64,000 nucleotides of DNA, taken from the NCBI GenBank assembly GCA_039189765.1, contig JBCCYL010000014.1, positions 34,786-98,785 on the forward strand, written 5' to 3'. Source of the stretch: Cyanobacteria bacterium P01_F01_bin.150. GTDB lineage: Bacteria > Cyanobacteriota > Cyanobacteriia > CAKZMO01. A program made the position numbers and the translations under genes. The first letter of the stretch is position 1. Each line of letters opens with the position of its first letter. Positions 15,583 to 40,632 of this stretch are shown piece by piece. A model generated the notes under the pieces. The model did not search any database. It saw only the letters and a list, made by a program, of their open reading frames with translations, and had not been told where the DNA came from.

Positions 15583-15855
15583 GCGATCGCCCGCAACCCT
15601 ATCACCACTGCCAATAAAGCTGCTTTCAGGAAGCGACGAGACCTTCAAGACATCACCCATTCAGCACAATCAGCAGGAGCGATCGCCTTCTTTGTCACAT
15701 CCCAATGCTGCCATCAGATCGATCGCCCCTCTTGCGACTGTACGTGAGCGATCGCATTTCCTTCAATGATTACGCGTGAAATACAGGGGGAGTGGGGTGG
15801 ATTATGGTGTGGAGGGGAGTAATCGATCGCCCCCTCAAAAATGGACTGAACCGCA
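15583..15855. repeat. HIP1-rich dispersed element, copy A
   Basis: Aligns by eye with copies B-G (cagcacaatcagca..gcgatcgccttc...gatcgcccctctt...gcgatcgcatttccttcaa). Confidence 0.85.
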
Positions 15856-15862
15856 GCATTAC

Positions 15863-16297
15863 TTAAAGGTGGTCTGTCTCAGTTACTGTTGCTCCGAACA
15901 TCTTGGCGATCTGCTTGGTTGCGTCTAATCCGCCGGATGGAATGGCGAGCTGTTCATATTCGATTGTTCCGCTACCATCGTCATCCAAAGTTATTCGGAC
16001 ATAAGCGATTTCAGCGTTTTCGATAGCGTCTACCCAAGATTCAAATTCCCAGGGAGTCTTCAGCGTTGGATCTGTAAATCGTCTTTCTACTGGCGTGCTT
16101 TCCCATCGTTTCTGCCAGTCAAGGAGTTCCTCGGGAGTCGGATGCCAGAAGTTGGTTGCGACAATATCTCCCAGAATCGAGGCAATCTGATCGGCATCCA
16201 AACGTTCCTCGGCTTTTGCCGTTCGCACGTAGTCGAAGAAATTCGTCAACTGTCTGGCATTTTTTGCAGGCAAGTTCCTGAAGCGAACGTACGCCAT
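15863..16297 (-). CDS. Hypothetical protein (cassette-like)
   Basis: 144-aa ORF, same strand as the cassettes, ends at element copy A. Confidence 0.7.
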   Translation of the reverse strand: MAYVRFRNLPAKNARQLTNFFDYVRTAKAEERLDADQIASILGDIVATNFWHPTPEELLDWQKRWESTPVERRFTDPTLKTPWEFESWVDAIENAEIAYVRITLDDDGSGTIEYEQLAIPSGGLDATKQIAKMFGATVTETDHL

Positions 16298-16648
16298 TTT
16301 GGATTCAATCCTTTAATGTTTTTGAGCTTAGTAGACGGTCAAGGCGAGCAAACATAACAAGCATAACTTCGTAGTCCGTATCTGTTGCAATGAGGTTATT
16401 AGGCATCGCTAGTACTACAAACAGCATTGCTGAAAGGTGCTCCCAGCCTTGACCAATATGTCTAAATTGGCGCGATCGCTCTTCTTGCGATTTCACGTTG
16501 GCAAGCCTATGTTGGCAAGCGCTAGACAGATCTATGCGCAACAATATATTGAGTGCTTATTTGGTCAGGCATCAATAGCGTTGGGAGACCAAGGGCTGAA
16601 TGATAGCGTTCTTGTTCTAAGAAAGGATTGCTACCATAACCAGCTTCA

Positions 16649-17143
16649 TCAACCGCATTGCCGATGATTAGGATTTTGGGGGAGTTTAAGTTTGTCCAAC
16701 GTATTTCTTCTATCCCAGAATGGAACAACAGCAATTATTGATGCTAGGTCATCGCCATTGAGCCACATCATGGTGACTGTCCGAATGCGATCAAGTTCGG
16801 CAGTCACAACACAGGCGTAGTCGCCAATGCCGAATACTCGACCAAGTAGAGTTTCCTTGCCATTGGAAGAGAGATGAACTTCCCAGCATTCTGGTTTTCC
16901 ACGCCTAAGTCTTCCCCGCCAAATGAAATCAACAATCCGATCGTCACGCCGAATCAAGAAAAAACTCCAATGTTCGTTTGCTGTAATCGTTGCGCCATTG
17001 CCAACCAACTCTTTAAGAAACGTAATGAACTCAGGGCCAAACGACACCGCTGGAATTGGATTCGGAAATTCATCCGGCCATCGCATGGGCTTATAGAAAT
17101 TATTCACTAACAGCAACCCTTTCATTTGGGTAGTCGAATTCAA
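16649..17143 (-). CDS. Hypothetical protein (true start probably downstream)
   Basis: Open frame that overlaps the next ORF by 44 bp. Confidence 0.5.
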   Translation of the reverse strand: MNSTTQMKGLLLVNNFYKPMRWPDEFPNPIPAVSFGPEFITFLKELVGNGATITANEHWSFFLIRRDDRIVDFIWRGRLRRGKPECWEVHLSSNGKETLLGRVFGIGDYACVVTAELDRIRTVTMMWLNGDDLASIIAVVPFWDRRNTLDKLKLPQNPNHRQCG

Positions 17144-18662
17144 TGACAGAATCGCTACCGACTTCTTGAAAGGAAAAGCGTTTTATAGAGTTTTGATAGT
17201 AATTTTGTGTATATTCTTGGAAAAACACTAAAACAATAATTTGGTATGCGTTTTCTTTGGATAGTTCTAACCTTCGGCCTCCTTTCCATCTAATATTTGG
17301 TTCTAGTATTTCATAGTCCAGCTCTGTTATTGGGCTAGAGTCTTCAGTGCTTGTAAACCAAAACCGAATTACATTACGGCCTGATTCAATGTCTGAAATG
17401 TAATGGACAAAGGGATCGTTTCCAATACGAGATTCTTTCGGTGCCGGAGGGTTAACGTCTATAGTTGGGTCACCCACTTCTCCAGTTGCACCTTCTAAGG
17501 GTATTTTGGGTTCCTGAATCGTATAGAACTGATCACCGCCAATCCAGAGTTCATTATCAGAATGCCCCCAAATTGTATTTACGGAGAGAGAAGTCGCCCC
17601 TGAAACATTGATCCATTCACCATTCCCATTAGACCAGAGAATTGTGCCCTGTAGCCCAACGACATAGATGGATTGAGGATTCAAGCCCCAAACAGCCGTG
17701 AGCTGTTGATTGTACTTTAGTTGTCTGGTCCATTGACCATCGCCTTGGGAATAGAAAATAGACCCTAATCTGGTGACTGCATAGAATGCGCCTTGCCCGT
17801 TTCCCCAAATAGAGTCAAAGTCCTCTTGGGTATCTGACTCCTCTAGGACCCAAATACCACCTTGATTGCGGCGTATGATTTTACCTTTTTCACCCACCAC
17901 AAATACGTTGTTTTGATCACCACTGACCCCAAAAAAGTCAACGTCAACAGGGCTTGGCTCTTGAGTCCAGCTTCCCTCCCCGGGGGAAACTAAAATCGTT
18001 TGGTCAAATCCAACCGCAAAAATCTGTTGAGCACCTCCAGGAGATTCTCGTCCCCAAACTGCATTGAGAGCCTTGGTTACGGGAGTCGAATTTAGTTGCC
18101 ATTGGGACTGACCCGGTTGGCGACTTAAAATGGTTCCTTTGCCGCCAACCGCATAAATTTTATGTTGGCGATCGCCCCAAATCCCAGAAAACCGTGGGCC
18201 ATTAAACAGAGTTTGACTCCACTGGCCCTGTTCACGGGACCATAACTGTTCCCAATTGGCAGAGGTAACAGTATGCTCATTCCCCCATAACCCCATAACG
18301 GGTTCCATATGGGCAGCAGATTCATGATGCCACTGTGTGCCATCCCAGTGCCAAATATCACCAAAGGTATAATAGCCTGGCGGTAAGTTGGCTGGAGGTT
18401 GCCTAACCGCTGGGAAGGGAGGCAAATTACACTGGAATTCTTCTGGGGCTATTGGAGGTTGTTGTAGGGGTGGAGCTACCGATGGTGTGGATTCAGGAGA
18501 CTGTGGGCTGTGTTGTTTTACAGTGGATGATTTATTGAAGGGTTTCAAGATCCCTTTCAAGACTCTCCTTACAACCCAAATGGCTGCGCCAATAATGGCT
18601 AAAATGATTCCTAAACCAATGCCAATAATGATTAGGCCAATAATTCCTTCTACCAACCTCAT
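17100..18662 (-). CDS. Membrane-anchored protein with beta-propeller-like repeats (WG...VG..G.I)
   Basis: N-terminal hydrophobic helix, Pro-rich linker, about 6 repeats of (V/I)WG-x-(Y/F)(A/V)VG..G.I...W. Confidence 0.75.
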   Translation of the reverse strand: MRLVEGIIGLIIIGIGLGIILAIIGAAIWVVRRVLKGILKPFNKSSTVKQHSPQSPESTPSVAPPLQQPPIAPEEFQCNLPPFPAVRQPPANLPPGYYTFGDIWHWDGTQWHHESAAHMEPVMGLWGNEHTVTSANWEQLWSREQGQWSQTLFNGPRFSGIWGDRQHKIYAVGGKGTILSRQPGQSQWQLNSTPVTKALNAVWGRESPGGAQQIFAVGFDQTILVSPGEGSWTQEPSPVDVDFFGVSGDQNNVFVVGEKGKIIRRNQGGIWVLEESDTQEDFDSIWGNGQGAFYAVTRLGSIFYSQGDGQWTRQLKYNQQLTAVWGLNPQSIYVVGLQGTILWSNGNGEWINVSGATSLSVNTIWGHSDNELWIGGDQFYTIQEPKIPLEGATGEVGDPTIDVNPPAPKESRIGNDPFVHYISDIESGRNVIRFWFTSTEDSSPITELDYEILEPNIRWKGGRRLELSKENAYQIIVLVFFQEYTQNYYQNSIKRFSFQEVGSDSVIEFDYPNERVAVSE

Positions 18663-18856
18663 ACCTCCGATTTATTAACGTAATTGTAGTTTTCGATTTA
18701 TGCAAGAAGCTTAATCGACCATGGTAGCTAAATTTTGATAAATACCAACCCATTCCCTATTAAGATTATTAGTCAGTAATACTCTACAAATAAATGTTCG
18801 TGATGATAGTGACCAGATCACTTATCTGGAATTTGGGTTCTGGTCACTGCATTATG

Positions 18857-39511: not shown

Positions 39512-39689
39512 TTCTCTCCTGATATTATTAGAGACGGACAAACAGAAGGTACCTCCGTTGCGAAAAAGGAGGCTCCTTTGTCTCTCACTGAACGTGGAAT
39601 TCTTGTGTATAACAGACACTTTCCGTAACCGCTTTTAATGTAGACTCTTGAGAGATGTTGTCACATCATATATCTCTTAAAAGGCAGAC

Positions 39690-39780
39690 ACCTAACGTTT
39701 ATACTCACCGGCGCGATCGTCATTTATGAAAAAATTAGCCTGCGTGGTAATCGAGCTTCCGGTGCAGTAAGAGATAGAAA
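39690..39780 (-). other. attC site with degenerate R''
   Basis: acctaac (minus-strand GTTAGGT); tactcaccgg / ccggtgcagta L boxes; R'' reads TTCTATC. Confidence 0.6.
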
Positions 39781-39885
39781 TCTGTTGTTTCTAACAGCTT
39801 ACCAATCGTGATTGCCCTTAGACTATCTTCAGTCAAGAATTCAATAAAACTTCAAAAAAGATCTCTGAATTTAGTGAATGCAGAA

Positions 39886-40130
39886 GTCTAACTATTTATT
39901 AGAGGGAAACTTTCGGCCTAATCCACCTGTGAAGCAGATTAGCTAGAAGCTTGTCCGCCTAATCCACCCAAATGGCATATTAGTTAGAAGTTCGTCCGCC
40001 TAATATCCCTATATGGGTAGTTAGATAGAAATGATTCAGTCTAATATGCCGATATGGGTGATTAGGTAGAAATTCGTCCGCCCAACATCCCGATATGGGT
40101 GATTAGGCAGAAAAATTCAGTATAATCTCC
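39886..40130 (-). other. attI-like site plus 41-bp tandem repeat block, copy 3
   Basis: gtctaactatttattag (minus-strand GTTAGAC core); units start at 39916, 39957, 39998, 40039, 40080; gtataat at 40120. Confidence 0.8.
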
Positions 40131-40193
40131 TCTTTAATGAGACATGGGAACTGTTTAATATTTATTTATCAGGGTTAATACAAAATTACTTTT

Positions 40194-40632
40194 ATGCAGT
40201 CACCCCAGTCTCGTCCGAAAAAGTTGCTTGATCAGGTTCGAGATGTCATTCGTACCAAACACTATTCATACCGAACAGAACAAACCTACGTACAGTGGAT
40301 TTACCGCTACATCATTTTCCACAACAAACGTCATCCCAAAGATATGGGCGTTCCAGAATATAGAAGCATTTTTGACGGATTTAGCAGTTAATCGTCATGT
40401 TGCAGCATCTACCCAAAATCAGGCTCTTAGTGCTTTGTTGTTTTTATACAAAGAGGTACTAAAACAGCCCTTGGATGAACGGGTCAATGCAGTTCGCGCT
40501 AAAAAGCCAAGCAAACTGCCAACGGTTCTAACCCCTGAAGAAGCAAGTCACAAAGATGTGAAAACGACTATGATTTACACCCATGTCTTAAATCGTGGAG
40601 GATTTGGGGTTCGCAGTCCGTTGGATGACTGA
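40194..40632 (+). pseudogene. intI: Integron integrase pseudogene (frameshift plus large internal deletion)
   Basis: [27 protein letters not shown]...[46 protein letters not shown] joined directly to [26 protein letters not shown]. Confidence 0.95.

Follow-up and report, generated by a model that had tools for sequence, protein, structure and literature searches.

In integron models, a single attI recombination site lies at the head of the cassette array, and to our knowledge the attI of most chromosomal integrons is not known. Complex or tandem class 1 integrons do contain repeated integron segments, which are duplicated by IS26 or ISCR1. The closest precedent for an attI-derived site that replaces attC within an array is the delta-attI cassette of integrons belonging to classes 1 and 2, for which units of attC, an open reading frame (ORF) and delta-attI, one of them with 244 nt of attI2, are described as substrates of the integrase IntI1 (PMC12901181). 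Here, we analyzed a window of 64,000 nucleotides (positions 34786-98785 of contig C14, GenBank JBCCYL010000014.1) from Cyanobacteria bacterium P01_F01_bin.150 (hereafter G000; assembly of 10.6 Mb in 350 contigs, completeness 99.1%, contamination 4.7%), in which an integron array holds seven copies of a spacer element (E) and several copies of the integron platform, consisting of attI, a run of 41-bp repeats and the 5' end of the integrase gene intI. In our best reading, a single chromosomal integron is in decay here, its platform having turned into a cassette-like passenger of the array it belongs to. Our verdict is that it represents an integron variant and not a new kind of system, and that the variant is wider than the first-pass annotation of this DNA held, while being mostly decayed here.

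All seven copies of E in that annotation were recovered by self-BLAST and alignment (200-360 bp each; Table 1), with pairwise identities of 74-92% over aligned columns. E is non-coding and rich in the highly iterated palindrome HIP1, the columns of which are near-invariant (minor alleles 1.2% versus 13.7%). The right end of E is an ATAAC core that lies directly at an attC in four of the seven copies (E2, E3, E5 and E7); E4 keeps the core and has lost the attC, and E1 and E6 are deleted on the attC side, leaving E1, E4 and E6 without most or all of this site. E3 and E5 have the same intI-E deletion junction, with 86% identity across 301 bp, and the sole supported grouping in a tree of the copies is E6 with E7 (93%). 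E stands first in the array, and the terminal intI, which carries the array's only intI 3' end, stands last. Together with the four E copies that end at a G|TT core abutting attC, this order points to an ancestral unit of E, attI, repeats and intI, as had been proposed at first. The boundary of the repeating unit needs to be redrawn: it had been placed around E, cassettes and attI, and the likely mobile unit is instead E with the truncated intI (intI') and attI on its left. E occurs nowhere but at this locus, where its end is a G|TT core next to attC, and the segment of E, intI', repeats and attI is therefore a unit with a recombination core at either end. An attC boundary together with an attI-derived boundary is retained by the units of E5 (30078 to 29337) and E7 (35687 to 35087, attI deleted), and by units in a second genome, G063, described below.

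The attI core (CTAACTATTTATTAG) is found at 29337 and 39888. With two intact sites and a deleted one, the array departs from the canonical architecture of one attI at the head. The first-pass annotation had counted three attI sites with repeats, about seven units and four occurrences of intI; two of the attI sites are indeed intact, but the third is deleted and only three of the seven units keep any attI, and the four intI pieces, which we located by tblastn with the intact IntI of a congener, are all present but pseudogenic, with no functional gene among them. These pieces are 83-87% identical to the congener IntI, which itself scores 464 bits, while the intI ORF of the window reaches 116 bits with TIGR02249, under the cut-off of 265. 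No full-length intI was found in the 350 contigs of the G000 assembly, and present activity would therefore need IntI in trans. The locus had also been called a multi-entry and multi-promoter integron. The former description needs narrowing to two intact attI sites, one of which is terminal, in an assembly without an intact intI; the latter finds no support in consensus scans, in which promoter sites (2, 2 and 3 versus 2.9, 2.9 and 1.9 expected from shuffles) were not above shuffles.

Early attC finders were either too strict or noisy, with only scores of at least 12 exceeding shuffles, and covariance models were used instead. Seven attC sites were found on the minus strand (35-61 bits), with no others within 10000-48000; these seven are the model's training set, and the first model, trained on them alone, also detects attC in other loci and genomes. 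For the four cassettes checked, the cassette start fits its own R'' box at 6, 7, 5 and 5 of 7 bases. No cargo is repeated between units by self-BLAST and comparison of units, which upholds the earlier statement that each unit holds different cargo.

We found no match to E in the rest of the G000 genome, nothing beyond 26-34-bp HIP1-type matches in 40 relatives, no copy in 400 genomes of the class, for each of which two candidates were scored, and no occurrence across GTDB when an exact pattern was scanned for. The genome-wide search that had been suggested for this element thus places it in one integron array and not at sites unlinked to attC and attI. A dispersed element (miniature inverted-repeat or repetitive extragenic palindromic type) was rejected on the same ground, with 7/7 copies in a single array. 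A decayed gene was also rejected, with variable columns even over codon positions (13/33, 19/34, 18/35), conserved stops and tblastx matches confined to this contig, as was a structured RNA, with no Rfam hit, only 1/24 pairs compensatory and no covariation. The original 3' flank of intI is disfavoured as a source of E, since the terminal intI has no E after it and E1 opens the array. HIP1 is frequent in G000 (11,400 sites, 1.07 per kb) and forms 81 clusters of at least four sites within 300 bp, making the HIP1 richness of E uncommon and not unique.

We give a probability of roughly 55% to a reading in which an internal platform, made by one illegitimate duplication, is moved by IntI as an attI-type cassette, with capture served in trans. 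E, which starts with a G|TT core, would be the pre-cassette flank downstream of attI, and hence the far end of the array. A tandem duplication would result from an illegitimate crossover linking E's outer end with the platform's intI side, in HIP1-rich genomes at a HIP1 site, as observed in the genome G001 and presumed here. The internal unit TT-E-intI'-upstream block-repeats-attI-G would then be bounded by attC on one side and attI on the other, and IntI could excise it as a circle with an empty attI and reinsert it behind another attC, with copies gained through replicative resolution. It is strongly implied that every inserted attI takes its own cassettes, with a supply of IntI in trans once the local intI is broken. 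The copies would decay by deletion with E remaining as a scar, the state seen in this window. The excision by IntI1 of units composed of attC, an ORF and delta-attI2(-238) (PMC12901181) and the possible duplication of cassettes via replicative resolution (PMC3458562) lead us to favor this route over its rivals. HIP1 has been linked to both site-specific and illegitimate recombination (PMC4390886), and is reported to improve transformation (10.1101/2024.09.10.611283). Within the window, the ATAAC ends at attC, the core kept in E4 and the junction common to E3 and E5 argue for such an attI-type cassette. Beyond it, the supporting cases are a pair of platforms on another contig of G000, a HIP1 junction with both its parents in G001, dispersed spacers in G063, near-identical platforms in G136 and solo attI blocks in G023.

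G000 contains 18 copies of the attI-repeat block on 12 contigs, with 0 hits in the reversed genome, and at least two same-strand blocks lie on each of 5 contigs. On contig C261, two platforms have a common intI deletion and a common flank ending at HIP1, with different first cassettes, and at the close of each array lies one copy of a second spacer, the start of which is close to a G|TT core. The architecture is thus not limited to the window and recurs on C261 and also in other families. Copies on C261 and C17 share 88-89% identity with the terminal platform of the window, as compared to 74-82% for its window neighbours. The platform alignment holds 14/20 copies, six having been left out for want of the anchor motif, and the resulting tree is poorly supported (59-73% at internal nodes among G000 copies).

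Across the class, a sequence-only model of attI and two repeats, built from 26 copies, gives hits at E <= 0.001 in 77 of 150 genomes, most of them with several hits (25 candidates scored per genome; 5 genomes also in the model; several matches may fall on one block), while an integron integrase above the curated cut-off is found in 48 of 151 genomes and in 0 of 14 controls. Among the best 150 of 677 rows, same-strand blocks no more than 9 kb apart occur on at least 8 contigs in at least 6 other genomes, these 8 contigs having all been examined, and the same anatomy with unrelated spacers is seen in G001, G063 and G073. In G001, contig C46 has the order platform, intI aa1-14, 290-bp spacer, attC, cassette, attI and platform. 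In its spacer, the 3' flank of this genome's intact intI (on C803) meets a HIP1-rich element that is not related to E; the junction falls exactly within a HIP1 site, and both of its parent sequences survive. The HIP1-rich element has three copies on C368, each starting at HIP1 and two of the three ending at attC. These copies bear on the idea that E is a repeated non-coding (promoter) cassette minus attC, or an independent small mobile element, with only a secondary link to the platform: E has a G|TT core at its start, as any cassette does, duplicates of gene-less cassettes are on record, and the C368 analogue precedes three different genes with no platform. However, none of the E copies has an attC on its left end according to the covariance model, E has no copies elsewhere in 10.6 Mb and shows no codon bias, covariation or promoter excess, and the G001 analogue is joined to a true intI 3' flank, making this explanation highly improbable.

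The genome G063 is HIP1-poor, and its contig C25 carries five attI blocks in 11 kb with attC between them. Its spacer family has 15 copies on 5 contigs (9 loci mapped), of which 10 abut different scored attC sites, 5 are linked to a full attI block and 3 come after intI 5' remnants; on C1, a single spacer-attI unit lies within an array with same-strand attC on either side. On C72 of G136, two platform copies differ at 2/615 bases (99.7% identical), start exactly at the attI AAC and have no cassette in common. A rival explanation is local tandem amplification alone. Under that rival, a segment of E, array and platform was duplicated repeatedly by illegitimate and then RecA-type unequal exchange, the platform was never moved by IntI, and cassettes turned over afterwards as platforms decayed. 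The restriction of E to this array, with E at the start and the intI 3' end at the finish, fits this well, as do the spacer copies clustered on C261, G073:C33 and G001:C368, and the homology of E1 with E4, E6 and E7, which starts at a HIP1 site just as that of the two C261 copies stops at one. Yet no cassette is duplicated between units, even next to the near-identical G136 platforms, the G063 spacer is spread over 5 contigs, and the terminal platform in the window is nearer to copies on other contigs than to its neighbours. We consider amplification as the only process to be rather unlikely, although it and the propagation of attI-type cassettes are not mutually exclusive.

Different cargo in each unit, and neighbouring platforms that are not closest relatives, would also be explained by the accretion of allelic integrons, in which circles or fragments of E, array and platform from related lineages arrive via natural transformation and integrate by homology at the resident platform; cassette uptake through transformation has been described (PMC12614218). 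However, no donor is known, given that E was not detected in the relatives, class genomes (two candidates each) and GTDB-wide scan listed above, and accretion does not account for units in G063 whose two boundaries both coincide exactly with a G|TT core. We regard it as improbable.

Several observations weigh against the attI-type cassette reading. No excised circle was seen, and the empty site (E joined to attI), which had been proposed as a check, was not found in the genomes searched. Although 15 further attI blocks exist in G000, E is confined to one array, an outcome for which simple local duplication accounts equally well. Only three of the seven units keep any attI, and host-like genes with no platform lie to the left of E4 and E6. 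None of 17 platform-homology ends in G000 lies within 25 bp of HIP1, and we do not support HIP1 exactly at every truncation; this is softened by 8/17 ends within 100 bp of HIP1 versus a background of 12%, several of them with a common junction. HIP1 is also not required, as G063 is HIP1-poor and the boundaries in G136 and G073 are not at HIP1. Finally, IS1-type elements border the solo blocks of G023 and could be what moved these blocks.

These G023 blocks lie on one contig with one intact intI: four attI blocks lack intI, have a common far junction and each hold their own first cassette, and three of the four are 99% identical over 176 bp. At this far junction, which lies at the last repeat box, the opposite strand reads GTT. 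In locus L051:8654-10211, a cassette in inverse orientation starts at this last box, with its attC R'' complementary to the start over 6 bases; here and in L048:16514-16689, an inverse cassette at the last repeat box gives divergent arrays from one attI block. Three further observations were made in other genomes. In L125:11596-11829 (G073:C33), an inverted third platform copy drives a convergent array. One 600-bp segment carrying a small ORF comes after many of the truncated platforms in G001, G002, G006 and G015 (L057:4366-5065 and related loci), and related segments are also dispersed in G000. Tandem copies on G022:C1 lie beside N gaps and have a cassette in common at 99.8%; they may be an artefact and were not counted as support.

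The G023 crossover at a repeat box bears on the function of the 41-bp repeats. Each unit contains two inverted integron-core-like boxes (R-Y-CTAAY and its complement) separated by 17 bases, and a stretch of 16 bases leads to the next unit; part of the box consensus, including the TAA/TTA positions, is fixed by the search pattern. Among 17 listed attI copies from several genomes, the repeat side of AAC is conserved and the other side variable, a pattern that marks an attI. The repeats have no Rfam match, no consensus fold and no covariation, and thus their symmetry looks like that of protein-binding dyads; inner-arm pairing is 3.26 versus 3.55 in shuffled halves. Conserved hairpins were rejected, as one block folds at z = -3.5 yet covariation is absent. 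Judged by sequence, the repeats are most likely chains of inverted putative IntI-binding boxes, an expanded counterpart of the DR1/DR2 repeats of attI1, and binding by IntI is predicted on three grounds: their likeness to cores, their placement in the interval from attI to intI, and the box crossover in G023.

We used Logan unitigs to examine the assembly. The sequencing run that matches best (X1) carries the label marine metagenome, and its unitigs tile 20931-40038 nearly without gaps at depths of 32-58 and with 0-2 mismatches; the listed pieces leave 115 bases uncovered (33977 to 34092), and unitigs break inside the shared cores of E. Four unit junctions (kinase-E4, intI'-E5, E6-cassette-platform and intI'-E7) are spanned by unitigs at uniform depth, and the E copies are diverged as noted above. 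The misassembly that the first-pass annotation wished to exclude is rejected on this basis, with read support that is not fully independent, as X1 may be the source of this DNA. Contigs of X1 at depths of 32-49 differ from the terminal intI (40310-40590): one is short of a base close to the frameshift, and others extend into the deleted part. They possibly stem from an intI, either neighbouring or left unassembled, with the potential to act in trans.

Table 1 Features of the reiterated integron array (window positions; a dot in the strand column marks features without a strand).
Feature	Position	Strand	Remarks
Spacer E1	15583-15860	.	starts at HIP1; right end and attC lost
Cargo, 6 ORFs	15863-19622	-	no Pfam match; no attC or attI detected
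Spacer E2	19628-19881	.	left part lost; attC adjoins right end
attC	19874-19962	-	
SnoaL-like cassette gene	19986-20372	-	
Group II intron 3' remnant	20445-20527	-	RF00029, 37.9 bits; gathering score 40 not reached
intI fragment aa22-47	20745-20822	+	fused to E3; attI gone
Spacer E3	20838-21123	.	intI-E deletion junction in common with E5
attC	21116-21214	-	
Kinase-like cassette gene	21276-22286	-	
Cache-domain histidine kinase	22727-24568	+	opposite cassette strand; at expected platform position, beside HIP1 end of E4
Spacer E4	24691-24892	.	starts at HIP1; internal deletion; AAC core at end, attC lost
Five-gene cargo (EamA, GATase, formyltransferase, FAD oxidoreductase, 108 aa)	24918-29336	-	38% GC; no HIP1
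attI simple site, internal	29337-29351	-	intact; inferred crossover G|TT at 29341/29340, minus strand
Four 41-bp palindromic repeats	29361-29521	.	
intI upstream block and intI 5' fragment	29526-29802	+	conserved block, TATAAT ~29530; aa1-47 at 29663-29802
Spacer E5	29817-30078	.	attC adjoins right end
attC	30071-30154	-	
Phosphotransferase (APH family) cassette	30164-31213	-	start/R'' 6 of 7
attC	31298-31383	-	
Multicopper oxidase cassette	31508-32980	-	start/R'' 7 of 7
attC	33110-33201	-	
PepSY gene	33820-34155	+	host-like, opposite strand; at expected platform position beside HIP1 end of E6
Spacer E6	34291-34590	.	starts at HIP1; right end deleted into half attC (~34590-34613, by eye)
Cassette gene, 149 aa	34614-35063	-	no assigned family
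Deleted attI, upstream block, intI 5' end	35087-35283	+	core fused to last repeat, 1 repeat left; intI 5' end ~35230-35283
Spacer E7	35328-35687	.	full length; 5 HIP1 sites; attC adjoins right end
attC	35680-35770	-	
Three-gene cassette	36276-39619	-	resembles tripartite alpha pore-forming toxins: Pfam Bacillus_HBL; weak Nhe/Mak below NCBIfam cut-offs
Degenerate attC and first cassette at terminal attI	39690-39890	-	attC 39690-39779; cassette 110 bp, no ORF
attI simple site, terminal	39888-39902	-	intact
Five 41-bp palindromic repeats	39912-40113	.	
intI upstream block and terminal intI pseudogene	40116-40632	+	coding piece 40194-40626: aa1-116 frameshifted, aa117-293 deleted, aa294-323 kept

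Among the cargo, the 4.4-kb segment at 24918-29336 lies directly at attI and looks like a small biosynthetic operon taken as one cassette, with EamA as the exporter. The toxin-like cassette region (35770-39690) spans 4 kb at 51% GC, has no HIP1 and has attC on both sides, and the third of its ORFs is the shortest (257 aa). The group II intron remnant occupies the spot of that unit's absent attI and has a copy on C145 that is 79% identical. Downstream of the terminal intI, a dispersed repeat of 113 bp (40730-40842) has 68 BLAST hits in the genome, and a CobN/magnesium chelatase gene region (45271-46693) contains internal repeats of 50-110 bp by self-BLAST.

Tentatively, and at somewhat less than even odds, we extend the attI-type cassette to a class-wide cyanobacterial variant, in which a mobile gene-less attI-platform cassette would be served by one IntI in trans, with HIP1 spacers as adaptors and repeat boxes as crossover sites. 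If so, new entry points, and possibly promoters, would be seeded inside arrays and at new loci, HIP1 spacers (a G|TT core at one end, a HIP1 cluster at the other) could also stitch host DNA into arrays, and the inverse cassette at the last box in G023 would make a double-headed attI. Many cyanobacterial 'CALINs' (attC site clusters that have no integron integrase) would then be live capture sites served in trans, and arrays could grow internally. Extra entry points or promoters may be useful to the host; a hitchhiker or debris fits as well with 4/7 units having lost attI. The analysis provides an attI family that can be searched for by profile and has a long extension of repeats; about half of the class genomes sampled contain it, usually in several copies and often without intI. 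This makes testable the origin of CALINs, the insertion of attI circles at chromosomal attC sites and the role of accessory IntI boxes, as well as the guidance of natural rearrangements by HIP1, for which the one junction in G001 keeps both parents. We found no title or abstract on reiterated attI platforms or repeat-extended cyanobacterial attI in a literature search that mostly left aside subscription papers and excluded supplements, and an earlier description is therefore possible.

In contrast to the class 1 integrons that IS26 or ISCR1 duplicates, the scanned ORFs of the window include no identified transposase, and the boundaries are G|TT cores, HIP1 sites or microhomology junctions. The delta-attI cassettes, as described, carry a gene and mostly 14-18 nt of attI (PMC12901181), whereas the units here are gene-less, the one at this locus having no ORF and only a reversed intI fragment, and comprise an entire attI together with its repeats, the upstream block and the 5' end of intI; they are reiterated in chromosomal arrays and recur across families. 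CALIN and In0 elements are likewise arrays without a functional integrase, possibly served in trans, with several integron elements per genome (PMC4889954). That source defines CALINs without attI, which it describes as not searchable in most integrons while noting cyanobacterial ones, whereas the arrays here keep one or several recognisable attI sites. The attI1 site resembles ours in its simple site with inverted boxes, its G|TT crossover and its extra core-like boxes on the intI side, but is described with two direct repeats (PMC12901181), in contrast to up to 10 boxes in alternating orientation with a 41-bp period. Finally, the gene-less promoter cassettes of superintegrons are also non-coding units within arrays that may drive distal genes (10.1101/2023.11.21.568050, PMC6557892); as reported there, they carry attC, while the units of this cyanobacterial array carry attI.

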